Positions 1-15,673 of a stretch of DNA of 16,021 bases are shown piece after piece. The notes under the pieces are model-generated. The model made no database searches and was not told where the DNA came from. It saw only the letters and a list, made by a program, of their open reading frames with translations. Numbering within the stretch: the stretch's first letter is position 1; each line of letters opens with the position of its first letter. Origin of the DNA: a virus (Duplodnaviria; Heunggongvirae; Uroviricota; Caudoviricetes); IMG/VR virus record IMGVR_UViG_2713896902_000004; one strand, written 5' to 3'. The position numbers were made by a program, and so were the translations under genes.

Positions 1-159
1 ATGCTGTTTCCTTGCATCATTGATGGGGAGTCTAAAAGACAAACTATATTTGAAGTGATTCATAACGCAATGTTTTTATGTTTAAAAATTGATTTTATTT
101 ACAAGGCGATGGGGGATTGCTGAAAAAATACTTTTACCCAGTTTCGCCAGCAGCTGGCC

Positions 160-423
160 GTGCGCTGGGTTGAAGCGGGTGAAGGCGTATCGCCAATGTG
201 CTTTGCGGAGCTGCTGGCGTTACGCACAGAGACTGACGAACTGCTGGAATGTAAACAGCGTGCGGGTGAAGCGGAATATGGTCCGCGTCGTCCTTTGTTG
301 CATGTGTTTATTAGTACGGAACTGGTGCGCGGTGAGCTCCCTCCCATGTTACCGGATAGCAGGGACGGAGATGCCAGTGAGCTGGATGGGGTGTTGTATC
401 AAACGGTAATGCGCTGGACTTGA
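160..423 (+). CDS. Uncharacterised GC-rich ORF (87 aa from GTG at 160; 75 aa from ATG at 196); possibly a truncated gene remnant
   Basis: Open frame with protein-like composition and host-like GC, followed abruptly by AT-rich DNA at 421. In-frame stop at 121-123 directly upstream. Nearest purine-rich stretch (GAAGG, 181-185) sits about 10 nt before the ATG at 196. No family recognised. Confidence 0.2.
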   Translation: MRWVEAGEGVSPMCFAELLALRTETDELLECKQRAGEAEYGPRRPLLHVFISTELVRGELPPMLPDSRDGDASELDGVLYQTVMRWT

Positions 424-571
424 CACCCTATATTGTTTTATTACTGTATCAGTAGTATTTTCCAAAATAGAATTCGTTGCTAAATTTTTAATTAAGTCAT
501 TTAAACCAATTTCTAATTACAGACTCAAAATTGTGAGTGGTTTGCCATTATAAATAATTTCACATGACAAC

Positions 572-832
572 TTATTTATAGTGATGAGCAATACTGAATA
601 AATCATGATAGTTAAGTGTTTTTTCTATATTCACAGAAATCGTTTCGGATGTCATCGATTCTTGCAGATGATAACCGGTATTTTTTACAAACTCTATCAT
701 TTTACCTCGAGTACTCCCCAGTACGGGATTACCTGCATTCATAGCTTCTATTGCCACCATATAAAATAACTCCTGAAATTTGGATGGAATAATAACTAAA
801 TCAGCCAAATAATAATAGCGATGCCTTTCCAC
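572..832 (-). pseudogene. Truncated group-1 glycosyltransferase remnant (C-terminal part only)
   Basis: Translation contains ...DLVIIPSKFQELFYMVAIEAMNAGNPVLGSTRGKMIEFVKNTGY..., resembling the GT1 C-terminal motif (PS..EgFg..EAMA.G.PV). Only 86 codons are open and there is no room for the roughly 250-aa N-terminal domain before the Tfa gene at 1073. AT-rich region. Confidence 0.45.
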
Positions 833-985
833 AAAAATACACCTCCTAATATATGACGGTATGAACTTGGTTGTTTAAATTATACTTAATTTTTTGAGGT
901 GTTTACATAGTATATGAATATGAGATATCGCATTCTATAAGTGAATGCGATCTATAGCATGGAATAAATAAAAAGGTGTTATAAT

Positions 986-1012
986 AAAAACTGGGTATGA
1001 AACCCAGTTTTT
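986..1012. terminator. Hairpin terminator downstream of the tail operon (usable in both orientations)
   Basis: Perfect 11-bp inverted repeat AAAAACTGGGT / ACCCAGTTTTT with 5-nt loop ATGAA, flanked by A/T runs; lies about 60 nt 3' of the Tfa stop (minus strand). Confidence 0.5.
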
Positions 1013-1072
1013 ATAAATTATATTATGAAAATAACATGGTTATTATGAGTAATATGGTAGTTTCATATAACT

Positions 1073-1630
1073 TTAATAATTATGTGGCATTATTGGCCAA
1101 TTAACATCGGATTTGATATCGAAACTCGTACGATTTAATTGTACACGATATTTTTTTAATCTTGATAAATAAACGATTTCCTCTTCTGTAGCCATATCTA
1201 GATCTACAGCGTCTTGTAAAGGTAATATGATCTCACTTGCTACTTTGAGTAGATTTTCTTTTTCTTTGAGAAATATATTTTCTAGGTCACTAGAACTATA
1301 TTCCTTGGTGATTATTTGTTCGTTTATATATTGATATTTATCTCGAATCATTATATCTTCTGGTAATATATCCGTTTCAATAATATCAAATCCTGCAGGA
1401 TATAGTTTTGAAATGTCTGTAGCTACAGAGCATATAAACTTACTTTCAGGGTGAACACATAGTTTATATTTTTTAGTGAACATTGGGAATGACGTGTAAA
1501 AATCTAATCCATTTTCATCTATGAAGTATTGAACTTCATCTCCATAAGGTTTTTCTTCTGGATAATAGCGAGTTACTTTTGTTAATTTCATTTTGGTATT
1601 CTCATCCTGAAATGGTACGCCACGCACCAT
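1073..1630 (-). CDS. Tail fibre assembly protein (lambda Tfa / P2 gpG-like chaperone)
   Basis: C-terminal ...LLKVASEIILPLQDAVDLDMATEEEIVYLSRLKKYRVQLNRTSFDIKSDVNWPIMP matches the conserved Tfa C-terminal motif. Sits immediately 3' of the fibre gene. The start is ambiguous: the longest ORF starts at 1630 and overlaps the fibre end by 29 nt; the internal ATG at 1589-1591 (MKLTKV...) has an AGGA upstream. Strongly AT-rich. Confidence 0.85.
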   Translation of the reverse strand: MVRGVPFQDENTKMKLTKVTRYYPEEKPYGDEVQYFIDENGLDFYTSFPMFTKKYKLCVHPESKFICSVATDISKLYPAGFDIIETDILPEDIMIRDKYQYINEQIITKEYSSSDLENIFLKEKENLLKVASEIILPLQDAVDLDMATEEEIVYLSRLKKYRVQLNRTSFDIKSDVNWPIMPHNY

Positions 1631-3098
1631 TAATATTTATTTGGACTGGTTTATATCGTACGCATTCCATTTTATCACCGCCGTCAACAAATGTGATTAC
1701 GCATCCAGCGGGGGCTGAAGTAGATGACTGAACTTCTGCTCCTAATTGTATGTTTTGTATATATCGAGCGTCAGATTGAGCTTTGGTATAAATGTTCACA
1801 GTGGTTGCTTTGCTGTTAGCAAGATCAAAAGCTGCCTTCACCGCGCTTGGTGTTGCCGCTTCCGTCGTACTTGTGCTGTTCGTTGCACTATTAAGCTTCA
1901 CAACTCCTTTTTGCGTCAGTGTGGCGTCGGGGATACCAGTGATTTGTCCCCAGGCGTGGGTATGACTTGCTGGTGCAGCCGCAATAGCCTTATCCATTGC
2001 CGCCTTCACCGCGCTCGGTGTCGCAGCTTCCGTTGTGCTGGTGCTGTTTGTGGTACTGTTAAGTTTCACAACTCCTTTTTGCGTCAGCGTGGCGTCGGGG
2101 ATAGCAGTGATTTGTCCCCAGGCGTGGGTATGGCTTGCTGGTGCAGCCGCAATAGCCTTATCCATTGCCGCCTTCACCGCGCTCGGTGTTGCAGCTTCCG
2201 TCGTGCTGGTGCTGTTTGTGGTACTGTTAAGTTTCACAATTCCTTTTTGCGTCAGCGTGGCGTCGGGGATACCAGTGATTTGTCCCCAGGCGTGGGTATG
2301 GCTTGCTGGTGCAGCCGCAGTAGCCTTATCCATTGCTGCCTTCACCGCGCTCGGTGTTGCAGCTTCCGTTGTGCTGGTGCTGTTTGTGGTACTGTTAAGC
2401 TTCACAATCCCTTTCTGCGCCAGCGTACCGTCAGGGATACTGGTTATCTGATTCCAGCCATGAGTATGACTGGTGGCGGCTTTGCTATTTGCCAGGTCAT
2501 ATGCGGTTTTTACTGCTTTTGGTGTGGCCGCTTTGGTTTCATCATCGCTATTAGTTGCATTACTCAGTTGCGTGAAACCTTTCTGCGTCAGTGTTGCATC
2601 AGGATGATTTCGTGATTGCTGATGTGCTTTCAGCGTGTCATCGACATATTCCCTGGTTGCCATAACAACTGAAGGATCTATCAACAGCGTCACCACATCC
2701 GCATTTGTCACTTCCATCACTGCGCGTATAACAATTTGCTTACTGGCACCTGCAGGTAATTGTGGTTTATAGGTTTCAGGGAATTTACCAATAGCGACCA
2801 GCGTGCCGTCGGTATCCAGCAACCCAACTTCGCGAACATACCAGCCTCCAACCTCTTCGGGAATAATCGCTTCTGCGATAACCCAGGCCGGATTATCTGG
2901 CGCAATTTTTAATGTATTGAGCTGACCACGCCAGACCTCATGGACTACTTTGGTCTGGATTTCTGTCGGTTCGATATATTTACCGTTGCCATCGCCAACT
3001 ACCATAGTTTGCAGACGGATCTGTTTTTGCTCCGCCAGTGCTGAGGCAATTTGGGTTTTGCCTGCAGCAGTTAATATTGTAAAAAATTCACTTGCCAT
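1602..3098 (-). CDS. Tail fibre protein (P2 gpH / Mu S-like N-terminus, repeat-containing shaft, divergent C-terminal tip)
   Basis: N-terminus MASEFFTILTAAGKTQIASALAEQKQIRLQTMVVGDGNG...NPAWVIAEAIIPEEVGGWYVREVGLLDTDGTLVAIGKFPETYKP matches the conserved gpH-type baseplate-attachment domain. Shaft has about 4 tandem ~56-aa repeats (SHTHAWGQITGIPDATLTQKGVVKLNSTTNSTSTTEAATPSAVKAAMDKA), the motif typical of side tail fibres. Confidence 0.9.
   Translation of the reverse strand: MASEFFTILTAAGKTQIASALAEQKQIRLQTMVVGDGNGKYIEPTEIQTKVVHEVWRGQLNTLKIAPDNPAWVIAEAIIPEEVGGWYVREVGLLDTDGTLVAIGKFPETYKPQLPAGASKQIVIRAVMEVTNADVVTLLIDPSVVMATREYVDDTLKAHQQSRNHPDATLTQKGFTQLSNATNSDDETKAATPKAVKTAYDLANSKAATSHTHGWNQITSIPDGTLAQKGIVKLNSTTNSTSTTEAATPSAVKAAMDKATAAAPASHTHAWGQITGIPDATLTQKGIVKLNSTTNSTSTTEAATPSAVKAAMDKAIAAAPASHTHAWGQITAIPDATLTQKGVVKLNSTTNSTSTTEAATPSAVKAAMDKAIAAAPASHTHAWGQITGIPDATLTQKGVVKLNSATNSTSTTEAATPSAVKAAFDLANSKATTVNIYTKAQSDARYIQNIQLGAEVQSSTSAPAGCVITFVDGGDKMECVRYKPVQININGAWRTISG
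1840..2530. repeat. Tandem direct repeats, about 168-bp unit, roughly 4 near-identical copies inside the fibre gene
   Basis: Near-identical 168-bp units begin at about 1861, 2029, 2197 and 2365, with more diverged copies on either side. In frame with the fibre ORF; they also create the spurious plus-strand shadow ORFs 1746..2615 and 2035..2451. Confidence 0.85.
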
Positions 3099-3100
3099 TA

Positions 3101-3832
3101 TTACTCCGGGTATACAGACATTATTTCGGTGCTCCAGTATCCTGTACCGATTTTCATCAGTTGGGATTGTGTAAGGCGATCAGGTCGATAAGGTAGTAGT
3201 TGGATATATTCCTCTACACAATAACCTGTCGCTAAAAATATTCTTGATGATTGGCTGATACTTTCTGCAACAGGAGGCAATACTGTAATGATTTCCCCTC
3301 CTTGCATGGCACTGCCAATAACTGGTATTGAGCTTTGATTAATAAGCCAAATAACAATACTTTCCAGTTTTGAACGAACATTTTTATATTCATGAATTAA
3401 TGTGATAAGTGCATTAAATTCATCTTCATTTAACCCTTTTTCCTCTAGTGTAATATCAACCTTAAAAAAATAAGCTTTCCCGCCATATTCAAACCATTCG
3501 GTAATAGTTCCAGGCAATGAGAGTATTTCCAGTACTCGCCGTACCGCCCAAACTGTTCCTTTATATTTATGTAACTCAATGGCTTGCTTAATTAACTCAC
3601 GCTTCTCTTGTTCATCAGTAGTAAATAACCAACCTTCCAGCCCCTGAACGTGGAATTGTTCTGCAAGGGCAGGTAATGCCGAAGCATCAACCAGGTCGAC
3701 CAGGTATATCATTAATGCCGTCAGATCGAGTTGCGCAAAACGTTCGGCGGCGATATTTGCCAGAGTTGAAAAACGCTCATCGCTGGCAAGCGGCGGCGGT
3801 GGCAGCAATTTATCCATCGCTGACTCCGGCAA
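3101..3832 (-). CDS. Baseplate protein gpI-like (P2 gpI / Mu gp48 family)
   Basis: Position between the gpJ-like gene and the fibre gene, size, and overlap with the gpJ gene (23 nt). Family assigned mainly by synteny and general resemblance. Confidence 0.7.
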   Translation of the reverse strand: MPESAMDKLLPPPPLASDERFSTLANIAAERFAQLDLTALMIYLVDLVDASALPALAEQFHVQGLEGWLFTTDEQEKRELIKQAIELHKYKGTVWAVRRVLEILSLPGTITEWFEYGGKAYFFKVDITLEEKGLNEDEFNALITLIHEYKNVRSKLESIVIWLINQSSIPVIGSAMQGGEIITVLPPVAESISQSSRIFLATGYCVEEYIQLLPYRPDRLTQSQLMKIGTGYWSTEIMSVYPE

Positions 3833-4925
3833 TCGTGACGTCTATTACAGTGCATTCCGCCCATTCATGCGCCTGCAAAATACGTTTTGTAGGCATGTTC
3901 AGCACAACGTCATAGACGCCATCGACTTGTAACACTTTGATTATCTGGTTTGGCACAATGTCCTGCCCCAGATGTTTCTGCCGCTGTTGCGTCCAGAGGC
4001 TAATCGCTTTACGCGCCGCAGCCAGTGTTGTCTCCTGATCGGCGGTGGTAAACAGCGTTAGCTGCGCACGAATTTCATACGGCACCCTAAGAGCACATTT
4101 CGCACTTACTTTGTCAGTCAGCGGACGTTTTTTCTCTTTACTCACTTCTTGTTCAATTTGCGCGAGTAGCTCGGTTCCCGGCAGACCATTCAGGGTTAGC
4201 GGGTAGAGCTCGACGCAGCCTTCTGGCAACCCTTCATCTGGCCCCAGTACTGCAACGTCAATAATTGACTGGCTAACCGAAAGTGTATGAAAGCGATATG
4301 CGCCATAGCTGCCGGCATTACTGAAGCTTTCTGGCGCCAGTTGTATACGCTGGCGTAGTGCATCATCGTTCTCTTCACCGCAACCGCCGGTTGTGGGAGT
4401 CAGATTAGTCACGTTGATATCGTAATAACCGATCCTGTCAACAAGGGCGCTAATCTGTGCAGGCTGCCAGCCATTGCCCTGTTCACCTGCTGCGAGGCTG
4501 GTGGCCGGAACGGCGATATGCAAACTCCTGGCCGGAAGCAGAACATCTTCATCGGTGGCGAACATCACGCTGTCAGAGGCACTGGCCCGCGTCCCCTGGG
4601 GAATCAGGATATTGCTGGTATACGCACTGACGACCGAAAACTGCAACGTCGTTTTTGCCGATTGTGCAGGTAAACGGTGAACACCCACCAGCTCCCCTAA
4701 ATAATCCAACATTGGTGCGCGGGAATACGTGACCAGGTTTTGTTTCGCCGCTTCCTGAATGGCGATGCGCACAAGGTTTTCACGATAGGCAAACAGGTCG
4801 ATGAGTAACCGTTCGGCCTGTGCCGGATAGAGTTTTTTACCGCTGGCATCTTCGTATTGCGCAATCATCTCGCTGGTAATTTGCGCAGGATCGCGGTCAA
4901 TAAAATCGGGTTCGGCTATCGCCAT
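3810..4925 (-). CDS. Baseplate wedge protein gpJ-like (Baseplate_J / T4 gp6-like)
   Basis: 371-aa ORF directly after the gpW-like gene with overlapping junction; sequence character typical of Baseplate_J proteins; conserved V-W-J-I-H-G order. Confidence 0.8.
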   Translation of the reverse strand: MAIAEPDFIDRDPAQITSEMIAQYEDASGKKLYPAQAERLLIDLFAYRENLVRIAIQEAAKQNLVTYSRAPMLDYLGELVGVHRLPAQSAKTTLQFSVVSAYTSNILIPQGTRASASDSVMFATDEDVLLPARSLHIAVPATSLAAGEQGNGWQPAQISALVDRIGYYDINVTNLTPTTGGCGEENDDALRQRIQLAPESFSNAGSYGAYRFHTLSVSQSIIDVAVLGPDEGLPEGCVELYPLTLNGLPGTELLAQIEQEVSKEKKRPLTDKVSAKCALRVPYEIRAQLTLFTTADQETTLAAARKAISLWTQQRQKHLGQDIVPNQIIKVLQVDGVYDVVLNMPTKRILQAHEWAECTVIDVTIAGVSDG

Positions 4926-5275
4926 AACACCTCCGTTGAGTTGATTACGCCGTCAGCGGCGCGCCATTGCACACGTAACGTCAGATGTTCACCGTCGATT
5001 ATCGGTGCTACCTTCAGCAACCGACATCGCGGTTCCCACTGGCGGATGGCTTCCACCGACTCCCGTACCACATGCGGGATTGCCCGCTCGATGGGGTAAT
5101 CGATGTAGTGCCACAAGTTGCTGCCAAACAGCGGTCTGTGGGGATCACTGCCGCGCGGCGTGCGCAGAATGATGTGTATTGCCTGGTGAATATCATCCAG
5201 TCCGCAGACGTATTCTTCAGGCCGCTGCAAGGCGGGTTGCCAGTGCAGCGTTGAGGGGCGTGTTTTTGTGTTCAT
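4916..5275 (-). CDS. Baseplate wedge protein gpW-like (GPW/gp25 family)
   Basis: 119 aa; ...DDIHQAIHIILRTPRGSDPHRPLFGSNLWHYIDYPIERAIPHVVRESVEAIRQWEPRCRLLKV... resembles the gp25/GPW family; sits between the V-like and J-like genes. Confidence 0.8.
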   Translation of the reverse strand: MNTKTRPSTLHWQPALQRPEEYVCGLDDIHQAIHIILRTPRGSDPHRPLFGSNLWHYIDYPIERAIPHVVRESVEAIRQWEPRCRLLKVAPIIDGEHLTLRVQWRAADGVINSTEVLWR

Positions 5276-5336
5276 GTGCTTATTTTCGCCCTGAACGGAC
5301 AGTGGGGATATTAAAGCGATTTAGAAAACTGATTGA

Positions 5337-5368
5337 TTAAAAAGAGAAAACCCGCCATCAGGCGGGTT
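5337..5368 (-). terminator. Intrinsic-terminator-like hairpin between the gpV-like and gpW-like genes
   Basis: On the minus strand, 4 nt after the gpV stop: AACCCGCC-TGAT-GGCGGGTT (8-bp GC-rich stem, 4-nt loop) followed by TTTTCTCTTTTT. Confidence 0.5.
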
Positions 5369-5373
5369 AAAAG

Positions 5374-6033
5374 CTAGTGTGAATGGTGATTTGAGTTACC
5401 ACCGCTATCCTGCAATGTGCCGCTGGCCTGAACGTTACCAATCACATTGACATTGCCAGTTATCGTGGCGGCGTTACCGATGCCTCCACTTCCTGCCATG
5501 CCACCCAGCCAGGTGAGTTTTTTCATTACTGTGACGTTACCAGTAAAGGTGCTCATGGGCGCATCTACCGTCACTGTCGCCGCTTTAATATCGACGGTAT
5601 CGGAAGTCACGGTGACCTGTTGGGCTTTAACCTCAACGTTGGGTGATGTCAGGTTAGTATGGTCAATAACCTCAATCACGATTTTCTCAATACCGCCGTT
5701 AATCGTAAGCTGGTGTGTGCTGCGGTCATATTCAAACGCTGCGCCATCAGAAAACTGGACGTAACGTTTATCTCGCGAGGCCACAGGCGCGGTGTCAACC
5801 GTAGAATAAACGGCCCCAAGTACCACGCCATCTTCGCCGTTGTCGTCCAGCAGAACTTCCACCTGCTCACCCATATCCGGTAGCCAGTAGTCTTTATTGT
5901 CCTGGGAATTACGTTGAAGTACCGCAAGCCAGTTACTCTTCAGATTGTCGCACTCTGGCAGTGTGACTCGCACCCGAACGCTGGTTTCGTCAATATCGCT
6001 GATAATCCCCGTTTGCCGGGTTACTCCCTTCAT
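5374..6033 (-). CDS. Baseplate central spike protein gpV-like (P2 gpV / Mu gp45 family)
   Basis: 219 aa; N-terminal OB-fold-like region (…NGEDGVVLGAVYS…) and a C-terminal Gly/Val/Asn-rich beta-helix-like region (GNVTVMKK…GNVNVIGNVQASGTL) typical of spike proteins; follows the gpD-like hub gene. Confidence 0.8.
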   Translation of the reverse strand: MKGVTRQTGIISDIDETSVRVRVTLPECDNLKSNWLAVLQRNSQDNKDYWLPDMGEQVEVLLDDNGEDGVVLGAVYSTVDTAPVASRDKRYVQFSDGAAFEYDRSTHQLTINGGIEKIVIEVIDHTNLTSPNVEVKAQQVTVTSDTVDIKAATVTVDAPMSTFTGNVTVMKKLTWLGGMAGSGGIGNAATITGNVNVIGNVQASGTLQDSGGNSNHHSH

Positions 6034-6042
6034 AGTGCCTCC

Positions 6043-7083: not shown

Positions 7084-7283
7084 GGTGGTATCTCCGATAA
7101 GGTTTTGTTGACGGAAATGACCGGAATAATGAGTTGAATACCGGAAGGCAGTACCGGGTAAATGGCGACATGTGGATTGGCGGCGATGATGCGTTCATAA
7201 GCCAGCGCATCGCCGTAGTAATACCATGCCAGATTATCCCAGCGTTCGCCGTCGGTGGTGATATGTTCAAGGTATCGCATCAC
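7071..7283 (-). CDS. Tail protein X-like (P2 gpX, LysM-like baseplate protein)
   Basis: 70 aa; TTDGERWDNLAWYYYGDALAYERIIAANPHVAIYPVLPSGIQLIIP parallels the gpX pattern (T..GDTLD.I..RYYG…VL.ANP…LP.G..V.LP). ATGA overlap with the upstream gene. Confidence 0.7.
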   Translation of the reverse strand: MMRYLEHITTDGERWDNLAWYYYGDALAYERIIAANPHVAIYPVLPSGIQLIIPVISVNKTLSEIPPWLR

Positions 7284-8233
7284 CAGCTCCTCGTAATGGT
7301 CGCGGCAGCAAGCTGGCTCACTGCGGGAGTGGTTTGTTGTACCGTTGTTCGTGCCTGCTCAACCAACGTTGCGGCTTTATCGAACGTCGCTTCGGCGATG
7401 TCGTTGGTAATGTCGTCGAAAAGCGCCTGAGCATGGTCAACCAGCGTGCTGGCGTCTTTGGCGCAGTCCCGGATACCTGGCATGTTACCCAGTAAAGCGT
7501 TAATCTGCGCCGATAACGCTTTTGGGAGTCCTGCCAGCGTTTGCAGATCCATGGGCTGTTTAAACAGGGTTTCGATGGCGTCGATAGTCTTTTTCAACGA
7601 CGTAATTATCTTTTCACACTTTTCTTTTAACGCTTTGGCCTCTTTAACCAGTGCTTTCACTTTTGCCACCGTTTTTTTAATATCTTCAATGGCTTGAGTC
7701 AGCTCATCGAGCATCTCTTTGGCCTTACGCATACCTTCTTCAATGGCGTTCAATATCTGATCAAACCAGGACTCCACCATGTCTGGAAAATCGCTCGCCT
7801 TTTCGTCAATATTCGGGTCTTGGGTAGTAATTGCCGGGGGCAAGAGTGGATTTTTAGGATCACCGGTGTACTCCTGGAGCGACATTGTTCCGCTTTGAGC
7901 AATCACATTGCCCCAGGGATCGGTGTGCTGGTGGGTGGCGGTTAGCTCCGTAATCACAAACCAGCCGCGATAATCGCCATTGCCAAACACCAGAGCCATC
8001 GCTTTGTGGGCAAGCATGCCTTCACGCAGTCGATTCAGCTCTGTTGTGGGTTGGCAAAACTGGCTGTGCAAGGAAAATTCCAGTGCCAGCATATCCAGCT
8101 TATCGCCAATAAACTGCACGCCGGGTTTGCCTTCTATACGGGCATGTGTGGCGTAGTCCACGCCCATTGTGCTTTTAAAGCCGTCCCAGAATGTGACAAC
8201 CTTAAATTCAATCTCTCCTAAAACGGCATACAT
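7280..8233 (-). CDS. gpU-like tail/baseplate protein with a long alpha-helical, coiled-coil-like C-terminal extension
   Basis: The first ~120 aa loosely resemble P2 gpU-type tail proteins, and the gene sits in the gpU position (TMP-U-X-D). The C-terminal ~180 aa are rich in A/K/E/L heptad-like sequence. Start overlaps the TMP stop by 1 nt. Confidence 0.5.
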   Translation of the reverse strand: MYAVLGEIEFKVVTFWDGFKSTMGVDYATHARIEGKPGVQFIGDKLDMLALEFSLHSQFCQPTTELNRLREGMLAHKAMALVFGNGDYRGWFVITELTATHQHTDPWGNVIAQSGTMSLQEYTGDPKNPLLPPAITTQDPNIDEKASDFPDMVESWFDQILNAIEEGMRKAKEMLDELTQAIEDIKKTVAKVKALVKEAKALKEKCEKIITSLKKTIDAIETLFKQPMDLQTLAGLPKALSAQINALLGNMPGIRDCAKDASTLVDHAQALFDDITNDIAEATFDKAATLVEQARTTVQQTTPAVSQLAAATITRSW

Positions 8234-10608
8234 CAGGCATACCCCCGGCGCTGTTGTTGCGCCATTACGTCGTTAATCATTCTTTCCAGTTCGCGTTTAC
8301 TTATCGTCAACACGTTCTGAATGTCTTTAGTGGTGTTTTGTCCGTTACTCTGCACGGTAATTTGTGGCGAAAAATTCACCTGAACTTTTCCAGAGGAACG
8401 GGAGGGTAGCGTCGCCGGTTTGGTTACAGATTTACCAGGTAAAGAGGCCGATGCGGGTTTGGCTGCTGTATTTTTTGCCGCTGGTGTCGATGGCGACGTT
8501 GTCGTTTTACTGGATGGCGCGAGTTGTTTGCCCACAGGAGGCGTTAAAATCGCTCCGGCAACGCCTGGAACAACGGTCGTGGGGGAGATTGATGCGGTAT
8601 TCGTCGTGCTTGTAACAGCCGTAGCCGATCCTTCTGTGCTAATACCCATCGTGGTTTTTAGCCAGTCCGGTAAGGCGTTTTTGACCTGATCAATAATGCC
8701 TTTCAGAGCGGGGAAAGCATTCATTATGCCGTCAACCAGACTGCCCAGAAGATTGCTGCCGAACTCGCTAAAACTTGCAGGCATCTCGATACCAAACCAA
8801 TTCATCACACTGGAAAAGGCGCTGTAGAACAACTCCAGCGGCGACCAGTCGAGAATTAACCGGCAAATCCCTGCAATGCCGCCGTCAAAGGCCGTGGTGA
8901 TACGTTGCCAGATGGCGGAAAAGAATCTGGAGATAGGTTCCCAGTGGCGATAGATCAGATAAGCAGCGCCCGCAATCGCGGTGATGACCAGACCAATGGG
9001 ATTCATCAATAAAACTCTACCCAACCAGAAGACGGTCTGACCTGCCAGTTTCAATGCGCCAATCAGGCCACGGCCAAGCAGTTGCGTTAGCCATTTTGCG
9101 CCGTTATATAATGACTTAACCGCTGATAGCATCTTACTTGCCGCGCCTGTGAGCGTCAGACTTGCCCTGACTTTCAGGAAGATATCGACCAGACGAATAA
9201 ACGGCGAGGCGATGACGTTCGCGCCCAGCTTTAAAACATTCAGTGCGCCGTTAAACAGCCAAATCGCTCCGACGATTTTCGCAATGTTTTGCACCAGCGC
9301 CGGGTGTTCACGTAGCCAGGCGCTGAACTGGCGAATCACCGGAGTAAGGCTTTGCGCCAACTCGCCAATCAGCGGCATTAATTGCAAGCCAATGCTGAGC
9401 CATAAATCATTTAACGCCAGTTGTAACGTTTTAGTTTGTTCAATGGGCGAGGCCATCTGCACAGAAAAATCGTTGTCAATCATATTCTTACCGCTGTCTT
9501 GCATGGCGGAGGCTTTTAACTGGCGATACTCTTCCATATTCGCCAGCACAGGTGCCAGGAATTCCACTGTTTGCGCATCGCCGAACATTTCGCCCAGATT
9601 AAATTGCGTCACCATCGATTGCAGTGCGTTGCTGCGAGCAGATAAATCTTCAATTTGCATGGTGCGTTTGAAGGTGTCGAGGATCGCCGGATTCATCTTC
9701 TCAAGTTGCGTTTGCACGATATGAATCATGGCTTCGCTAACACCCATGCCGTTTTGCTGATGTTCAAGCAGAGAGCCTTGCAGATCGACGCCCTGGCTGA
9801 CGAACCAGTTATCGGTTTTTTTCGAAAAGATGGTTTGCAGAAAGTGGTCGAAATTCTCCGCCGCCACACTGGCGCTGGCACCATTTTTCATTGCGATCTG
9901 CATTGTGGCGGTCAGTTCAGCCATACCTTCTAAACCCTGTGCGCCAGTTTTAACTGCAAATTTGTCTATCCACTGCGCTTGCCCGGCAACGGTAGGCCCA
10001 CCGTTTTTGCTAATGCCGTACATCATGTTTTGCGCGGCGTGGAAATTTTCTGGCGCAATATTCAGTCGATCATGAGTCGCGAGCGCGGCATTCGCCCATG
10101 TTTCAGCACTTTCGCGCGTGGTGGTGGCTGCTTTGGCGATCTCCGGCATATAACGGTTGAGATCCTGCATCGACGACAAATTACCTTCGATTAGCACCTG
10201 GGCTGCGTTCTGTAAGGTGGTCTGCTGCTGGTTAAAATCCATACTCCAGTCGCGCAGATTAAGGCTGAGTGTCTCGCGGGTTGTATCATTCATCCCACCT
10301 TTGGTCGCCAAATTGACCATGTTGTCCTGAAACTCATACGGCAACTTCCAGTCAGGGACTTCAACATTGAATACTTTGCTAAATTGCCCGGCAAATGTTT
10401 GGGTTTTCTCCATCAGATCAGCGCGGTTTCGGCTATTTTCCTCCAGGCGGAGAGCGGAATCGGCAAGTTGCTGCGTTAGTTTGATTACTGCCGCTTGCTG
10501 AGAAGAGAGTGCTAACAATGTTCTGGCGTTGAGTGAGCCGTAACGGGCTATTGCCTGCGTCAACGTCTCATTACGCGTCTGAAGCTGGGTAATAATATCG
10601 TTGGCCAA
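8233..10608 (-). CDS. Tail tape measure protein
   Basis: 791 aa, largest gene of the module, directly after the chaperone gene; alpha-helical N-terminal half, several hydrophobic segments in the middle, Ser/Thr/Pro-rich low-complexity C-terminal region. Annotated start is TTG with AAGAGA upstream. Confidence 0.8.
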   Translation of the reverse strand: MANDIITQLQTRNETLTQAIARYGSLNARTLLALSSQQAAVIKLTQQLADSALRLEENSRNRADLMEKTQTFAGQFSKVFNVEVPDWKLPYEFQDNMVNLATKGGMNDTTRETLSLNLRDWSMDFNQQQTTLQNAAQVLIEGNLSSMQDLNRYMPEIAKAATTTRESAETWANAALATHDRLNIAPENFHAAQNMMYGISKNGGPTVAGQAQWIDKFAVKTGAQGLEGMAELTATMQIAMKNGASASVAAENFDHFLQTIFSKKTDNWFVSQGVDLQGSLLEHQQNGMGVSEAMIHIVQTQLEKMNPAILDTFKRTMQIEDLSARSNALQSMVTQFNLGEMFGDAQTVEFLAPVLANMEEYRQLKASAMQDSGKNMIDNDFSVQMASPIEQTKTLQLALNDLWLSIGLQLMPLIGELAQSLTPVIRQFSAWLREHPALVQNIAKIVGAIWLFNGALNVLKLGANVIASPFIRLVDIFLKVRASLTLTGAASKMLSAVKSLYNGAKWLTQLLGRGLIGALKLAGQTVFWLGRVLLMNPIGLVITAIAGAAYLIYRHWEPISRFFSAIWQRITTAFDGGIAGICRLILDWSPLELFYSAFSSVMNWFGIEMPASFSEFGSNLLGSLVDGIMNAFPALKGIIDQVKNALPDWLKTTMGISTEGSATAVTSTTNTASISPTTVVPGVAGAILTPPVGKQLAPSSKTTTSPSTPAAKNTAAKPASASLPGKSVTKPATLPSRSSGKVQVNFSPQITVQSNGQNTTKDIQNVLTISKRELERMINDVMAQQQRRGYA

Positions 10609-11164: not shown

Positions 11165-11689
11165 TTAGCCACCGATGTTATTGCGATAGGTACTTAATTG
11201 ATCCACGCCGTTAACGCGGAAAATATTCGCCATATAATCCAGTTCAAGCAGCGTTTCACCATCGACTACTTGTTTAATATAAGTGCAGCCAAAGGCGCTG
11301 CTGAATTCCGGGTTTTCATTCTGTTTAAATGTGCCCAGTGGATTTTTTTTAAACATCACGGTTAAATGTGTGACTAACGCTAATTGATTCGCTTTCCCCT
11401 GAGAGTTATAACAATCGATACTGGAGCGACACTGTAATGCTACAGCCTGCCACGGGTTTGCCGTTTTACGCATTACGTCCTGGTAAAAGGAGTTCCATTT
11501 AATTTCCCCCTCCAGTTTATCGAAACCAGCCGGGAGTTCTATTTTACCCACCATGCCCAGTGCTTTATGTTCCTGCATAATTAAACTGACATCTGGCAAT
11601 TTAATTTCTGTTGCACGGCCTAAAAGATTATTACCATCGAGATAAATATTGGCGTTGGTAATACGGTTAATTTGAATTTTTCCAGCCAT
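11165..11689 (-). CDS. Tail tube protein (P2 FII-like)
   Basis: 174 aa immediately after the sheath gene with a 1-nt overlap; size and sequence character of contractile-tail tube proteins. Confidence 0.8.
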   Translation of the reverse strand: MAGKIQINRITNANIYLDGNNLLGRATEIKLPDVSLIMQEHKALGMVGKIELPAGFDKLEGEIKWNSFYQDVMRKTANPWQAVALQCRSSIDCYNSQGKANQLALVTHLTVMFKKNPLGTFKQNENPEFSSAFGCTYIKQVVDGETLLELDYMANIFRVNGVDQLSTYRNNIGG

Positions 11690-13116
11690 TAGCGATTGCT
11701 CTCCAGAGAGACTAAATATTCAGAGGTAATTTCAGTTTCAAACGTCAGACGTTCCAGCGGCGGCGGTGGGGTAAATTTATAGCTGAGCAATAAATGCCCG
11801 GCACTGAGTTCAGCCGGTGAATTTCGCGCCGGATCGTACCAGCACTCAAAGCCAAGCAGTGCGCCGTCGGCAATCAGTTTTCGGCCCCAGGTATTTACCG
11901 ATTCGGTCAGCGCGTCAATCAGTGCCTGATTGATCGGCATATCAATATACTGTTGACTGAAATAACGGATTGACTCATTAATTACATCGCCTGTCCGGCG
12001 AACGTTTTCAAAGTTACGCATATGAGTCACGGTTGGCCATGCCGCTGTGCGGTTGCCCCACAGGCGCAGACCAGAACCATAACTATTGAAAATAGTGGTA
12101 ATACCGTTTTCGTTGAGCTGATTCACTTCGCTTTGTGGATCATCAATCATTGCGGAAAGCGAACGTTCGATACCGGTAATACCCTGAATTTCCTGGTTTG
12201 AGTTGCTCCACCAGAAACCTTTTTCGAGGTCTACTTTGGCACGTAGCCCGGCAGCGCGCGAAGAGAGAGGTTCAAGAATTTCCTGGTTAGTGATGCCATC
12301 GTAAACTTTGACGTGTGGGTAGCATAAACGTGCACGATCAGAGCTGGTATTGAAGTTGATTGCGCCTTGCGAACCGCGTCCAGCCAATACCTGCTGGAAT
12401 GTAGTCCCAATTGGGGCATCAATGTAGGTAATCGCACCGAGTTTTTCCGCTTGTGCAATCAGCTCGGTAGTCACTGATTTTTGCGTACAAAAAACGGGTG
12501 CCAGCAGAATTTTGGCGTAGAAACCATACAAGTTATAAGTGTCCTGAAGGAGCCTCATCCCCGTGCGATCGCCTGCGGTATTAACGGCCCCGATAATATC
12601 GGCTGCGGTGACCTTTGTAGGGTCAACATAGGTATAAGTCGCGTAAACCTTTGCTCCTGCCGCAATTTCAGTTCCTGTACGGGTAATAACGCCGTCAGCG
12701 GCATTAACGCTGTATGATGTATTTTTGTATGTAGTGGAACTGATACTTGCTCTTAGCGTTACCGAACTTACCCCCGGATGAGTTAATTTAGCTTTATCGT
12801 CACTATTGAACGTAATGGTTTCATTGGTAATGTGTAGTCCATGTTTTACTGGATCCAGCACATTAATTACCACCACTGTACCGGCACCGTGATCATAAAT
12901 CGCCTTCAGCGCCTGCGGGATCGTAAAGTTAGCCTGAGTCGATCCAAACTGTGCCGCGTCACTTTCAGAAAGGCACAGCGTCGGTTGGTTTACCGGGCCA
13001 CAGGGAGCGGTACCGATTAAAGCGATTACAGCAGATTTTACTGCTTTTACCGGACGCGGGCCGGTTTCAATTTCAATGGTTTCTACACCGTGCAGATAAT
13101 TAGCTGCCATGTACAA
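11689..13116 (-). CDS. Tail sheath protein
   Basis: 475 aa; C-terminal conserved sheath motif (…GSGLRLWGNRTAAWP…); followed by tube gene with overlapping stop/start. Confidence 0.9.
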   Translation of the reverse strand: MYMAANYLHGVETIEIETGPRPVKAVKSAVIALIGTAPCGPVNQPTLCLSESDAAQFGSTQANFTIPQALKAIYDHGAGTVVVINVLDPVKHGLHITNETITFNSDDKAKLTHPGVSSVTLRASISSTTYKNTSYSVNAADGVITRTGTEIAAGAKVYATYTYVDPTKVTAADIIGAVNTAGDRTGMRLLQDTYNLYGFYAKILLAPVFCTQKSVTTELIAQAEKLGAITYIDAPIGTTFQQVLAGRGSQGAINFNTSSDRARLCYPHVKVYDGITNQEILEPLSSRAAGLRAKVDLEKGFWWSNSNQEIQGITGIERSLSAMIDDPQSEVNQLNENGITTIFNSYGSGLRLWGNRTAAWPTVTHMRNFENVRRTGDVINESIRYFSQQYIDMPINQALIDALTESVNTWGRKLIADGALLGFECWYDPARNSPAELSAGHLLLSYKFTPPPPLERLTFETEITSEYLVSLESNR

Positions 13117-13297
13117 TTTCCTCTACGTTATTTTGTTCTTCCTGGGGAATGATGAGAATCAAGTGATTTCGGGCAATCATGGTCATAACCCACTCATTGT
13201 CTTCTGGCAGATCAATTTCACTGTTCGGCCATAATAAGATTTCTTGACCGTCGGCAAGGGTGACGCCGCTTGCCGGACCGTTGTAGATATATTTCAT
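13100..13297 (-). CDS. Small conserved phage protein preceding the sheath gene (Mu gp38/DUF2635-like by position)
   Basis: 65 aa; ATGA overlap with the upstream gene and 17-nt overlap with the sheath start; assignment by position and size only. Confidence 0.35.
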   Translation of the reverse strand: MKYIYNGPASGVTLADGQEILLWPNSEIDLPEDNEWVMTMIARNHLILIIPQEEQNNVEEIVHGS

Positions 13298-13749
13298 TCA
13301 GTTTCCTCGTAATTAACTTCAGTAAGCAGGGGAAGATCCGTGCTGTCCTGTTCAGCGATAAACAGCGAGCTGGTCGCCATTTCCAGGATGTAGCGGCAGA
13401 AACCGTCGCTCTCACCCGTATTAATTTCTTTTTCAAGCCAAATAAGATGATCGCAATCAGGAGGCTGAAGGCCTCCCAATGCGCTGCGTATGTGATCAAG
13501 TGCGTTTAACGCATCACAATTTTTGCCAACAATAACGGTGGCGGTTAAGCGGAGTATTTGCTGTTGTACAATGGCATCACTACTTTCGGGCGTGGTGAAG
13601 ACAGAACCGCTATAATTAATAATCACCGTAATCTGTTGTGTCTGTGGAATATATTTTTGGGCATCCGTAGATGAAATGAATATGTCCATTTCAGGATGCC
13701 GATCACGTAATCTGACCACGACATAATTCATTACAGATAAAATTTTCAT
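13294..13749 (-). CDS. Putative tail completion/terminator protein (Mu gp37-like by position)
   Basis: 151 aa, first gene of the tail block after the terminator at 13855-13891; coupled to the next gene by an ATGA overlap; assignment by synteny. Confidence 0.4.
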   Translation of the reverse strand: MKILSVMNYVVVRLRDRHPEMDIFISSTDAQKYIPQTQQITVIINYSGSVFTTPESSDAIVQQQILRLTATVIVGKNCDALNALDHIRSALGGLQPPDCDHLIWLEKEINTGESDGFCRYILEMATSSLFIAEQDSTDLPLLTEVNYEETE

Positions 13750-13895: not shown

Positions 13896-14210
13896 TTAAT
13901 AACTGCCACGTTGTAATAACTCTATTTTGCTATATAAGGCATCCAGCTTTGCTTCTAATACTGCTTGTCCACGAAGATAATCCTCTCTGCGGACATAATA
14001 CAGTGGAAGTTCGGCACGAAATTCGAGAAATTCTCTTTCCAGTTTCGACCAGCTTGTTTCTGATTCCCTGCGGGCATTTTCCAGGGACTCAAAACGCTCA
14101 TTAAGTCTTTTTTCAATTTGCGCTAACAGCAATTTTCCGGCAGCAAACATTAATCCAACGAATGAAAGCATAAAGGAGATCACTTCCCAAAAATCGATAC
14201 TGAGTTTCAT
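13896..14210 (-). CDS. Membrane-anchored coiled-coil protein, possible i-spanin (Rz-like) or lysis accessory protein
   Basis: 104 aa; N-terminal hydrophobic helix (ISFMLSFVGLMFAAGKLLLAQI) followed by a charged helical region; immediately after the transglycosylase gene. Confidence 0.4.
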   Translation of the reverse strand: MKLSIDFWEVISFMLSFVGLMFAAGKLLLAQIEKRLNERFESLENARRESETSWSKLEREFLEFRAELPLYYVRREDYLRGQAVLEAKLDALYSKIELLQRGSY

Positions 14211-14222: not shown

Positions 14223-14828
14223 TTAGTGAAGACAGCTTGCCTGTCCCCAGAGTAAGTAGCGGGCGGCGTGTTGATAGAGAATCATCTTCGGATAGTGACG
14301 ATTTTCTCGCCAGTTTGCGGCGCTGCGCCCGGCGTTGACTTGCTCAACATGACCAAACCAGATGGCGGCATTTAACCCTTTTGTTGTCGCCAGTTTTTTA
14401 TCCCGGTTAATCCAACCCTGACCACCGTTATAGGCGCTTAGAGTAAACGCCATACGTTGACAATCATTTTTTGCAGAGATGTTGTTCCATAAATGCTGGT
14501 CGTACTGTACCAACGCCCGGATTGCCCAGGTTGGGTTATACGGTTTGTTTTCATGTAGCTGTGGATACAGTTGGCTTATCCATGTCGCTGTGGCAGGCAT
14601 AAATTGCGCCATACCTTGTGCGCCAACGGGGGAACGTACCATTGGCTGCCAGGCGGACTCCTGGTGTAATTGCCCGGCAAAGTCAGCCACAGGAGCGTTC
14701 AGTCCCCAGACTTCTCGGGCGGTACGAATCAATTCATTTCTCCATGCCAGAGAGGCTTGTGGTGGTTCAGACGCATTAAGCGGGAAAAGAACGAAAATAA
14801 TCATAGGCGCGATATATTTTAGCCACAT
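14223..14828 (-). CDS. Lytic transglycosylase (SLT-domain endolysin candidate) with N-terminal signal peptide
   Basis: SLT catalytic motifs: …QLHQESAWQ… (catalytic Glu-Ser), …GAQGMAQFMPATA…, …AYNGGQGW…. The longest ORF runs to 14927 but the likely start is the ATG at 14826-14828 (MWLKYIAPMIIFVLFPLNA, Sec-type signal peptide), 2 nt after the upstream stop. Confidence 0.85.
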   Translation of the reverse strand: MWLKYIAPMIIFVLFPLNASEPPQASLAWRNELIRTAREVWGLNAPVADFAGQLHQESAWQPMVRSPVGAQGMAQFMPATATWISQLYPQLHENKPYNPTWAIRALVQYDQHLWNNISAKNDCQRMAFTLSAYNGGQGWINRDKKLATTKGLNAAIWFGHVEQVNAGRSAANWRENRHYPKMILYQHAARYLLWGQASCLH

Positions 14829-14830
14829 CA

Positions 14831-15118
14831 CTATAGCCCTAACGCGACGGAAAGGCAGACTGCAGCCACGATGATGGCGCGACGAATCATTGCCGCTGCG
14901 TAGCAACGCGGTTCCTTCCTGGGGCAAAAAAAGTCAGGCCGTGCCCAGGGGAACAAACTACGATCGAGCCAGTATCCCAGCACTGCGGAAAGTGAAACCA
15001 GGCTTAGTTTATAAATGACGACCGGAATTTGTGCTGAAGATGTCCAGCCGATCAATGCAATCAGAGCAATGGCTGCAGCCAGCCAACCGGAAAGACGGGG
15101 AAAAGTGATTTTTTTCAT
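14831..15118 (-). CDS. Holin-like small membrane protein
   Basis: 95 aa with 2-3 predicted transmembrane helices; strong AGGAG 8 nt upstream of the ATG; first gene of the lysis cassette, tightly coupled to the transglycosylase gene. Function by position only. Confidence 0.4.
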   Translation of the reverse strand: MKKITFPRLSGWLAAAIALIALIGWTSSAQIPVVIYKLSLVSLSAVLGYWLDRSLFPWARPDFFCPRKEPRCYAAAMIRRAIIVAAVCLSVALGL

Positions 15119-15434
15119 ACGATATCTCCTGATAAGTGAGATACCAGTGTCTGCTTATCTCTTTGCTGAAGAATGAAAAAAGCTTTAATAAATAACTTTA
15201 AAAAATGTGTTCTCTTCGAATTAACATGTTCGCCAATTAATCTCCCAACTCAAAATAGAGAACTAAGGATAAAATGGCTGCCAGTTAGATAAATCCTGCG
15301 TTATGTGTAATGAAGGGGATGACATATTGCAATCATGGTCGTTACTTATTTGATTTTTAAAGTTTGTTTAAAAAAATCCTCGACTGTGAGGGAAACGAGC
15401 TTTTTGAAAAGTAGGCGATAAAAATGATAAATAG

Positions 15435-15454
15435 CACTGTATATGTATACAGTA
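15435..15454. promoter_or_regulatory. LexA (SOS) box
   Basis: CACTGTATATGTATACAGTA matches the E. coli LexA consensus TACTGTATATATATACAGTA at 18/20 with intact CTGT-N8-ACAG. Overlaps a possible minus-strand promoter (-35 TTTACA, 16-nt spacer, -10 TACAGT) and lies just downstream of a possible plus-strand promoter (-35 TTGAAA 15404-15409). Confidence 0.6.
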
Positions 15455-15673
15455 TCGTGTAAAATGGCACTCCTGTTGATAAGACATGTAATGAAAATAA
15501 TATATTTGTTTTGTGAATTTATAATTCGTTTTAATTTTTATTGCATATACATTGTGATTATTTATTTGCGTGTTGAATGTATTGAAAAGCAGTAATTGCA
15601 CCAACTTAGCGGATATCCGTGGTGTAACTCACATCAGAGTCCATACAGGGTGCAAGATATATGGAGATGAAAA

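Follow-up and report, generated by a model that had tools for sequence, protein, structure and literature searches.

The window analysed here (the whole 16,021-nucleotide stretch of IMG/VR record IMGVR_UViG_2713896902_000004) carries, at one end of a cluster of tail genes, a block that is much poorer in GC than the rest. The question this locus raises is whether the block, which covers the end of a tail fibre gene and the DNA beyond it, is a receptor-specificity module recombined onto a conserved fibre shaft, as the initial annotation proposed for positions 420–1760, or an old part of the cluster whose composition is simply unusual. Positions 424–1830 show a step in base composition, recognizable genes, exact boundaries, alternative alleles both within the species and across genera, and a pseudogene. 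We consider it probable (about 80%) that they are an exchangeable receptor-specificity cassette at the distal end of the tail cluster, swapped by recombination and carrying a dead waaK moron.

Composition and gene content of the AT-rich block

The features discussed below are the following (window coordinates, strand in brackets):
124..423 (+): 3' remnant (last ~99 codons) of an RlaP-type nucleotidyltransferase gene, Pfam PF10127 RlaP, profile positions 150–248 of 249
424..1830 (−): AT-rich, probably exchangeable cassette, 1,407 bp, GC 0.29–0.31, with fibre tip, Tfa, terminator-like hairpin and waaK-like pseudogene
495..876 (−): pseudogene remnant of a WaaK-type (GT4) LPS N-acetylglucosaminyltransferase, amino acids ~253–380 (3' third), natural stop retained
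984..1014 (no strand): terminator-like hairpin, 13-bp arms that pair perfectly around a 5-nt loop, with A/T runs on either side
1073..1591 (−): Tfa (tail fibre assembly protein), Mu U-type, 172 aa from Met14, from Pfam, PHROG, PDB and homologue starts
1602..1830 (−): fibre tip, last ~76 codons (aa 423–498), Mu S-type C-terminal domain by sequence comparison, putatively receptor-binding
1834..2440 (−): fibre shaft tandem repeats of 168 bp (56 aa), TRF period 168, 3.6 copies, 93% matches
3098..1602 (−): complete tail fibre gene, 498 aa, with a P2 gpH-type N-terminus, a repeat shaft and an apparently swapped tip

GC content is 30.6% (0.306) in 420–1760 and 48.2% (0.482) in the remaining window. 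All other segments of the same size (1341 bp) have a mean GC of 0.484 (SD 0.031, minimum 0.421), which places 420–1760 about 5.8 SD low. A maximum-likelihood two-change-point segmentation of the first 4 kb set the boundaries at 428 and 1656, between segments of GC 0.55, 0.29 and 0.47, with a log-likelihood gain of ~59 nats. Third-position GC (GC3) is 0.215 in Tfa, 0.27 in the fibre tip (aa 430–498), and 0.29 in the open reading frame of the glycosyltransferase fragment, compared with 0.467 for fibre aa 1–422 and 0.46–0.66 for most other tail genes; lower values elsewhere in the cluster are found in gpI (0.34), the tube (0.42), Gp37 (0.42), and the lipoprotein gene (0.35). Within the fibre gene itself, GC3 in 20-codon steps drops from ~0.45–0.7 to 0.15–0.35 between codons ~420 and ~440. 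Sliding GC, codon-position analysis, and segmentation therefore bear out the sharp change at 420–1760 and the AT-rich Tfa gene described in the initial annotation. Its AT-rich fibre end is real as well, yet the length given for it (~50 codons) is too short, as the foreign part spans ~70–76 codons, and the module ends near 1830 rather than at 1760. Further, smaller low-GC patches occur at 3150–3600, 13650–13950, and 15150–15650. Low GC by itself is weak evidence for import: the tip regions of the alternative cassettes described below are likewise GC-depressed (0.32–0.42), and tip genes of this kind may therefore bring some of the bias with them.

In Pfam searches, the fibre has a Phage_tail_fib N-terminus followed by five Phage_fiber_2 stretches. 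The tip aligns weakly with residues 434–501 of Mu S (domain i-Evalue 0.14) and with S' (0.34), and it shares with both the motifs D.RY...LG and RP.Q..ING.W. Judged from the alignments, its relatedness to Mu S appears convincing solely through intermediates, such as the tip of a Mu-like E. coli prophage, in which a tip homologue (63–67% identical) and a Tfa (~40%) lie in an invertible segment beside a Gin-type (Resolvase-family) invertase. The closest relative outside the species, 79.7% identical at the amino acid level, is the fibre tip at the orthologous locus of Salmonella, and tips of E. coli prophages are 63–79% identical. In total, 106 cluster representatives (50% identity clusters) match the tip, nearly all at the extreme C-terminus (last ~65 residues) of proteins that are mostly 90–735 aa long and whose shafts vary. 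This tip family recurs on unrelated fibre shafts among Mu-like, P2-like, lambdoid, and large virulent phages, and adjacent pairs of tip and Tfa are found in Mu-like, P2-like, lambdoid, and CR3-like phages. The earlier suggestion that novelty in this system lies most likely in the tip is not supported by this comparison, given a Mu S-type domain with such close relatives in Salmonella and E. coli and a family of ~100 clusters.

The mechanically called Tfa frame (1630..1073, minus strand, 185 aa) would overlap the fibre gene. Its start is most likely Met14 (window 1591), because NCBI annotates the 172-aa form in Escherichia albertii and homologues begin at the equivalent Met. The fibre stop codon (1602–1604) lies directly upstream of this Met on the same strand, an adjacency also seen in homologues. 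Tfa matches Pfam Caudo_TAP (PF02413) with 74.1 bits against a cut-off of 22.1 (residues 82–182), PHROG 136 “tail fiber assembly protein” (1.3e-46), and Mu Tfa U (PDB 5YVQ_B, E 2.4e-11, residues 22–182). In the full-length alignment with Mu U, conservation is strongest at residues ~123–165, and the N-terminal half alone has 50–64% identity with DUF4376-type proteins. Tfa has the two-domain architecture, with a variable N-terminal and a conserved C-terminal helical domain, that is described for the modular Tfa mechanism, where the variable domain binds the fibre (PMC9608196). The hairpin at 984..1014, 59 bp downstream of the Tfa stop, probably ends the tail operon.

Beyond the hairpin lies the glycosyltransferase fragment, whose longest open piece (832..572, minus strand, 86 aa) matches Glycos_transf_1 and Glyco_trans_1_4, and whose natural stop reads near 495–497. 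A tblastn search with an intact 380-aa paralogue recovers residues 269–379 at 61% amino acid identity across three in-frame stops, and the nucleotide identity to this paralogue is 73% over window 525–876. A frameshifted piece lies at 876–838, and the 5' two-thirds are missing. The best GT4 model is NCBIfam PRK15484 (100.8 bits, positions 270–353, below the curated cut-off of 618), and no other GT4 model fits nearly so well. With one frameshift, three nonsense codons, and only positions ~253–380 left, the fragment is a pseudogene, not a working member of the family, and is genuine debris of a decayed WaaK-type gene, in agreement with the initial annotation. It matches the same model as WaaK/RfaK, the LPS outer-core alpha-1,2-GlcNAc transferase, but differs in being a pseudogene inside a tail cluster and not a gene of the waa locus. 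The fibre tip, Tfa, and glycosyltransferase remnant named at the outset were thus all verified by Pfam or profile and homologue searches. The intact paralogue is found just outside the window (positions 9804–10946 of contig L003, which holds the window), beyond the nucleotidyltransferase remnant and 0.75 kb from the cassette copy, and scores 687 bits with PRK15484 over positions 1–379 of 380.

Alternative alleles on a tail-only island

The window holds a tail-only island of E. albertii, inserted between lysC and yjbD-rluF, with lysC-pgi on one side and yjbD-rluF on the other. Its genes comprise a Mor activator, holin, SLT endolysin, lipoprotein, Gp37, sheath, tube, TAC, and TMP, followed by gpU, X, D, V, and W (with Pfam and PHROG support), gpI, gpJ, and the fibre. 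Gene identification with Pfam and PHROG found no head, packaging, integrase, or replication genes in the island. A contractile tail, a lysis cassette, and a regulator at a fixed chromosomal site are the gene set of an R-type tailocin, and the cluster is best described as tailocin-like, of P2-type contractile build and chromosomally fixed. E. coli, E. fergusonii, and Salmonella carry the island at this site too, and four of five loci in other genera show the yjbD or nucleotidyltransferase flank.

The clearest evidence for exchange comes from a second E. albertii strain, L081. Its fibre is 100% identical over aa 1–150 and 96.7% in the repeats (97–100% over the shaft as a whole), and its flank, comprising the nucleotidyltransferase remnant, orf87, waaK(b), and yjbD, is 99–99.6% identical at the nucleotide level. 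At the DNA level, the left side is 99% identical up to 423 and the repeats are 93–96% identical down to 1831, with unrelated sequence between them; homology of L003 with L081 restarts at L003 9208, which is window position 423. The block between these flanks in L081 is 2.75 kb long and encodes an HxH-type tip, a DUF4376 protein, a 151-aa protein, and a 242-aa ORF. One species therefore holds unrelated alternatives between near-identical flanks, as the proposal of a specificity cassette on a conserved shaft anticipated.

Both edges of the cassette can be placed. The left edge is just past the stop codon (421–423) of the nucleotidyltransferase remnant, a flank of normal GC (55%) that is common to both E. 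albertii cassette alleles, 99% identical to its L081 counterpart, and 70% identical in amino acids to residues 158–263 of an intact 263-aa gene in E. coli IAI39. The right edge is the end of the 168-bp fibre repeat array, the distal end of which (1834) coincides with the junction. Comparison of the junction after the last repeat with related loci, a check suggested by the initial annotation, showed that all five relatives diverge after the ...ATPSAVKAA motif. E. coli IAI39 is 92% identical over 2146–9158 and has no similarity across window 424–1830.

Other species and genera have at least five further tip and chaperone variants on this backbone, namely E. fergusonii, E. coli, Superficieibacter (two loci), Dryocola, Phytobacter, and Lelliottia. 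The HxH/DUF4376 type is common to several of these (E. coli, Superficieibacter, and Lelliottia). Searches of IMG/VR, a phage collection, and 5,426 E. coli genomes found no donor and no near-identical cassette, and the best relatives outside E. albertii are 54% identical for Tfa and ~80% for the tip.

Origin of the cassette

How would such a cassette have been exchanged? We propose one crossover inside the last conserved fibre repeat or at its end (...ATPSAVKAA) and another immediately after the stop codon of the nucleotidyltransferase remnant. The tip of the cassette (the last ~76 residues) would contact the surface of the target cell, with the LPS core as its most likely receptor. If the cognate Tfa works as in Mu, its variable N-terminal domain would bind this tip, and its conserved C-terminal helices would drive trimerization. 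The WaaK-type gene would have travelled with the cassette as a moron and decayed later, and the low GC would reflect the pool that supplies tip and chaperone modules and LPS-core genes, not the host backbone.

The reading that competes most seriously holds that the AT-rich tip and Tfa are ancestral and vertically inherited, with a low GC that is intrinsic or selected (for example through H-NS expression control or fold constraints), and that only the HxH/DUF4376-type alleles were imported. Salmonella gives it some weight: at the orthologous locus it has the same tip and Tfa, colinear and equally AT-rich (30–38% GC in the module vs. 58–68% in the shaft), and its DNA aligns with the window at 71% between 3150 and 1176. 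Between E. albertii and Salmonella, the tip (80%) is conserved like gpJ (87%) and the repeats (78%), above gpI (68%) and the fibre N-terminus (62%), but Tfa (54%) is far more diverged than the tip. Because of this colinear module in Salmonella, E. albertii need not have acquired the AT-rich module recently; the module may have belonged to the island for a long time, with the other E. albertii allele arriving later. On the other hand, the HxH/DUF4376 type also occurs in several genera, so neither type is clearly ancestral, and the occurrence of the tip family on unrelated shafts across the phage groups named above speaks against purely vertical descent. Two alleles in one species with 99% identical flanks need at least one recent exchange, and a GC3 of 0.22 left unameliorated since the split of Salmonella and Escherichia would itself have to be explained. 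On balance, we regard vertical inheritance of the module as possible but doubtful.

Far less probable is an arrangement in which the block is half of an invertible host-range switch of the Mu G, P1 C, or e14 P type, worked by a Gin, Cin, or Pin invertase. The Mu S/U-type tip and Tfa, and the Mu-like E. coli prophage in which their homologues lie directly beside an invertase, make the comparison a natural one, yet neither the window nor 8 kb of flank on the yjbD/rluF side contains an invertase gene, no long-range inverted repeats surround the cassette (positions 1–1900 hold just two local hairpins), and in place of a second, oppositely oriented tip and Tfa there is the co-oriented waaK pseudogene. 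The arrangement is also identical in all eight contigs with this Tfa among those listed. An invertible segment is essentially refuted by the lack, in the DNA searched, of an invertase, flanking inverted repeats, and a second tip and Tfa.

The waaK remnant invites a further reading, that tip, Tfa, and waaK formed a functional unit in which the WaaK-type enzyme would add a GlcNAc cap to the outer core of the producer's LPS and so shield it from its own fibre (self-immunity or superinfection exclusion), the role having passed to the intact paralogue once the cassette copy had died. The LPS core is the receptor of Mu-type fibres. The cassette copy is co-oriented and directly downstream of Tfa, the intact gene lies nearby, past the nucleotidyltransferase remnant, and in P1-like E. 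coli plasmids a waaK-like gene of 70% identity directly adjoins Tfa and tail fibre genes (the remnant is 57% identical to a P1-like plasmid copy). The cassette waaK is nevertheless dead in all E. albertii contigs examined, and the paralogue sits in a common flank with three tip types (E. albertii alleles A and B and E. fergusonii) and therefore has no pairing with this tip in particular. Several strains (L002, L004, L007, and L081) have a split or 5'-deleted paralogue, and in E. fergusonii it is a separate insertion between yjbD duplicates, outside the tail island. A self-immunity unit thus seems unlikely, and recombination of an exchangeable specificity cassette that carried waaK as a passenger remains our preferred reading.

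Relation to known tail systems and significance

The cassette resembles Mu S/S' and Tfa U/U' (G segment; PDB 5YVQ and 8JU3) in its order of fibre then Tfa and in the alignments of both, but it differs in having no invertase, inverted repeats, or alternative S'/U' pair. Its tip is also shorter than the C-terminal region of Mu S/S' to which it aligns, and is fused to a P2 gpH-type N-terminus and Phage_fiber_2 shaft instead of the constant part of Mu S. Mosaicism of the P2 H/G type is similar in several respects: the N-terminus that joins the baseplate is conserved, the C-terminus and downstream chaperone are swapped as a unit, the crossover falls in conserved repeat motifs, and the swapped part is of deviant base composition. 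Fibre C-termini and their chaperones have reportedly been exchanged horizontally among P2, Mu, P1, lambda, and T-even phages. That mosaicism is between free phages, whereas the variants described here are alleles at one fixed chromosomal locus, within a species and across genera. R-type tailocins with hypervariable fibre loci, such as the R-pyocins and kosakonicin (PMC6629978), are likewise tail-only, have a regulator and lysis cassette at a fixed site, and vary among strains mainly in the fibre and chaperone locus. The island differs from them in its gene order (sheath-tube-TMP-U-X-D-V-W-J-I-H-Tfa) and its Mor-type activator. It is well supported that the block is an ordinary mosaic module, tip and chaperone swapping being a well-known route by which phage tails change targets.

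A literature search found no description of the lysC-yjbD island. As a speculation to which we give little credence, the island could be an undescribed, widely conserved enterobacterial R-type tailocin with a killing spectrum set by tip and chaperone cassettes, in which WaaK-type transferases would ride along as receptor-masking self-immunity, as beside the fibre genes of P1-like plasmids, and the dead waaK would be the fossil of a “weapon plus shield” cassette.

The locus offers a natural example of tail fibre retargeting, in which two alleles in one species give the exact crossovers, one of them in a conserved repeat motif, and these are the positions one needs to know in order to engineer chimeric fibres on this backbone. 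Of potentially greater use than the cassette is its wider context, which includes a tail-only island found at a single chromosomal site in at least seven genera of enterobacteria and the recurrent presence of WaaK-type LPS genes beside fibre modules. If particles are made and kill, this island context could account for antagonism between strains and for the diversity of LPS cores in Escherichia.

A tail gene island between lysC and yjbD

The window, assigned to Escherichia albertii by its source names, carries on its minus strand a P2-type contractile-tail gene cluster, with a Mor-family activator encoded divergently at one end.

Features of the island (window coordinates, strand, description)
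15674-16021, +, Mor-family activator, divergent
15118..14831, -, holin
14927..14223, -, SLT endolysin
14210..13896, -, lipoprotein
13749..13294, -, Mu Gp37-like protein
13116..11689, -, sheath, followed by tube and tail assembly chaperone
10608..8233, -, tape measure, followed by gpU, X, D, V and W (gpU to W from the precomputed Pfam table)
4925..3810, -, gpJ
3832..3101, -, gpI
3098..1602, -, fibre, 498 aa
1630..1073, -, Caudo_TAP ORF of the tail fibre assembly protein, Tfa

Head, packaging, replication and integrase genes are absent from the window. In contigs encoding exactly these proteins, lysC-pgi lies directly past the Mor gene, and the other end of the island is followed by a 380-aa glycosyltransferase gene, yjbD and rluF. 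Given these flanks and the lack of head or integrase genes, the island is a tail-only, tailocin-like insertion between lysC and yjbD. E. coli, E. fergusonii and Salmonella share the island and its site, Salmonella having a truncated copy, and in 234 of 5,426 complete E. coli genomes there is a match to part of window 1-3200, with identity of 80-95% in about 150 of them. The island occurs too in Superficieibacter, Dryocola and Phytobacter, where the yjbD or nucleotidyltransferase flank is visible, and in Lelliottia; a scan of genome contigs with gpI returned five loci from other genera and no Escherichia or Salmonella representatives. Our literature search found no earlier account of it, whether for E. 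albertii or for E. coli. Window 15150-15650, which separates the holin gene from the divergent Mor gene, is AT-rich (28-32% GC) and may be where the island is regulated; its 78-aa ORF (15604..15368) matches neither Pfam nor PHROG.

Composition and limits of the fibre-end cassette

The initial annotation had proposed a sharp change in base composition over a fibre tip, Tfa and a glycosyltransferase fragment, all three of which are present, and the change is real and large. GC content is 30.6% in window 420-1760 vs 48.2% elsewhere in the window, where all other 1341-bp windows have at least 42% (mean 48.4%, SD 3.1%), and when the first 4 kb are segmented by maximum likelihood, the composition changes at 428 and 1656. 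At third codon positions, Tfa has a GC of 0.215, the fibre tip 0.27 and the glycosyltransferase ORF 0.29, compared with 0.47 in fibre codons 1-422 and 0.46-0.66 in most other tail genes; the value is lower (0.34-0.42) in gpI, tube, Gp37 and the lipoprotein gene. Along the fibre, third-position GC falls between codons ~420 and 440. The Tfa protein probably starts at Met14 of its ORF (window 1591), as in the 172-aa NCBI annotation and in all homologues.

Comparison with relatives sets the limits of the segment. The island of E. coli IAI39 occupies the same position and is 92% identical to the window over 2146-9158; its fibre repeats align down to 1831, there is no alignment from 1830 to 424, and homology restarts at 96-423, the 3' end of a nucleotidyltransferase gene. 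More informative is a second E. albertii strain (L081): the fibre N-terminus is 100% and the repeats 96.7% identical in amino acids to those of the window, and the left flank (nucleotidyltransferase remnant, orf87, 380-aa glycosyltransferase, yjbD) is 99-99.6% identical in nucleotides, and between the equivalents of window 423/424 and ~1830 lies an unrelated 2.75-kb block encoding an HxH-repeat tip, a DUF4376 protein, a 151-aa protein and a 242-aa ORF. A five-way DNA alignment across the junction, a comparison suggested at the outset, showed that all relatives are alignable through the ...ATPSAVKAA codons of the last Phage_fiber_2 repeat and then diverge at once, and Tandem Repeats Finder ends the 168-bp repeat array at 1834. 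Together, these results place the cassette at window 424-1830, with one junction in a conserved repeat motif and the other directly after a stop codon. The foreign fibre end had been estimated at ~50 codons, where we count about 70-76, and the block had been ended at 1760, where it reaches ~1830.

Among E. albertii strains with identical Tfa (L002-L007), the fibre is 442, 498 or 554 aa long, and since the steps equal one 56-aa (168-bp) repeat of the array at window 1834-2440, they reflect variation in repeat copy number of the shaft. The 40-aa ORF at window 1-123 is the end of an 87-aa ORF (9771..9508 in L003, an E. albertii contig with the window allele), whose surroundings, upstream of the intact waaK paralogue, are AT-rich. 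It matched no family, yet L081 conserves it at 100% and E. fergusonii at 72%.

Exchange of tip and Tfa modules

The window Tfa is related along its entire length to the Mu Tfa (gene U, PDB 5YVQ_B; E 2.4e-11), and the tip gives a weak alignment to the final ~70 residues of Mu S and S'. A Mu-like E. coli prophage has, beside a Gin-type resolvase, a Tfa together with a tip 63-67% identical to that of the window, and by tblastn adjacent tip and Tfa pairs are present in Mu-like, P2-like, lambdoid and CR3/phiTE-like phages. Exhaustive HMMER searching gave 106 tip cluster representatives at 50% identity, nearly all matching at the extreme C-terminus of proteins of mostly 90-735 aa; a word-indexed search had returned 3 proteins only and understated the family. 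With this breadth, the tip is an ordinary member of a family of mobile C-terminal domains, and the suggestion that it was the most likely novel part of the system did not hold. The mechanism would be the one reported for Mu (summarised in PMC9608196), in which the variable N-terminal domain of Tfa binds the distal fibre, conserved C-terminal helices drive trimerisation, and Tfa remains attached to the particle and takes part in recognizing the receptor. The N-terminal half of the window Tfa shares 50-64% identity with DUF4376 protein N-termini, in keeping with this modularity. An invertible segment like the G-type switch of Mu was considered and rejected, since neither an invertase nor flanking inverted repeats nor a second tip or Tfa is present in the window. 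NCBI records give several partial copies of the fibre the name 'short-chain fatty acid transporter', an artefact caused by the alanine-/threonine-rich repeats; the same repeats also produce spurious Succ_CoA_lig and LacZ_4 Pfam matches below threshold.

Alternative tips sit on the same backbone across genera. E. fergusonii (L082), in which the nucleotidyltransferase and slipin genes are intact, has the same shaft at 90-94% amino acid identity with a third tip resembling a distant Mu S type; DUF4376 and 151-aa proteins are encoded as well. The HxH/DUF4376 type is found in Superficieibacter electus and Lelliottia, and a second Superficieibacter, Dryocola and Phytobacter each have still other tips and chaperones. 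GC dips at the tip region (0.35-0.41) in four of the five other-genus loci, less than in the window, with little dip in Lelliottia. The truncated island copy of Salmonella enterica, adjoining yjbD-rluF, has a fibre ending in the same tip (79.7% amino acid identity), followed by the closest Tfa outside E. albertii (54%); this segment is as AT-rich (30-38% vs 58-68% in the shaft), and the Salmonella and window DNA align straight through tip and Tfa (window 3150-1176, 71%). With such variants on one backbone, exchange of the tip/Tfa module is certain, and either of the two E. albertii alleles may be the older.

The 151-aa protein (motif ...CSEFCAEFL...SWRYSPNHLYALVSS; L001 6363-6818, and also L015, L017, L018, L019, L081 and L082) has no Pfam or NCBIfam match; it closes the island in every relative without a Mu-type Tfa and is absent from the window allele and Salmonella. 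A second mosaic joint looks to be present between the 3' half of gpI (3101-3600), which has low GC (GC3 0.34), and the fibre N-terminus (2650-3098), and gpI identity does not track that of the fibre N-terminus (61% vs 83% in Lelliottia, 68% vs 62% in Salmonella).

When a donor of 424-1830 was sought by blastn, the 5,426 E. coli genomes together with 50,697 phage records yielded no more than a ~190-bp stretch matching at 68%, where the fibre gene ends and Tfa starts. An IMG/VR scan with Tfa gave no match, a metagenome scan with the glycosyltransferase fragment only 33-43% relatives, and a word-indexed protein search with the reconstructed remnant only itself.

waaK-like genes and the fibre locus

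The intact paralogue (L003 9804-10946, 380 aa), which lies immediately to the left of window position 1, is a full-length WaaK/RfaK-type LPS N-acetylglucosaminyltransferase (NCBIfam PRK15484, 687 bits, cut-off 618). By tblastn on the window, it matches at 61% identity over residues 269 to 379 through three in-frame stops, and a further piece, in a shifted frame, extends the match to residue ~253 (window ~876 to ~503 in all; 73% nucleotide identity). With these stops, the frameshift and a match to the 3' part only, the fragment is what remains, in decayed form, of the 3' third of a second waaK-like gene. It lies inside the cassette, directly downstream of Tfa and on the same strand, and its early description as debris agrees with this. 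The same truncated form is present in all E. albertii contigs seen. We rejected the 86-aa ORF as a real gene with a strong Shine-Dalgarno sequence, the AGGAGG before its GTG being ...LGGV... codons of the ancestral WaaK frame, which continues upstream after the frameshift.

The flank common to both E. albertii alleles holds the intact paralogue, with yjbD on one side and the nucleotidyltransferase remnant on the other. L002, L004 and L007 have it broken into two pieces of 246 and 89 aa, and in L081 its 5' end is deleted. The E. fergusonii gene sits between a complete and a partial yjbD copy, which points to an insertion of its own. P1-like E. coli plasmids, such as p1919D3-2 (L080, NZ_CP046005.1 77720-79493), carry a waaK-like gene with 70% amino acid identity to that of E. 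albertii beside Tfa and tail-fibre genes; an acetyltransferase gene accompanies it, and the immediate neighbours are a DUF4376-N/Caudo_TAP-C chimeric chaperone and pieces of tail-fibre genes. This recurrence beside fibre modules suggests a function in receptor masking. The evidence for it is mixed, given that the intact paralogue accompanies both E. albertii alleles, seems to be a separate arrival in E. fergusonii and is broken or shortened in several strains.

The initial proposal of a specificity cassette recombined onto a conserved shaft is borne out by the two E. albertii alleles, the junction alignment and the other-genus variants, and our analyses support a receptor-specificity cassette that is exchanged by recombination, belongs to a well-known kind and includes, as debris, a pseudogene moron. 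Taken alone the cassette is of modest interest; the better leads lie in the tail-only island around it and in the repeated association with waaK.
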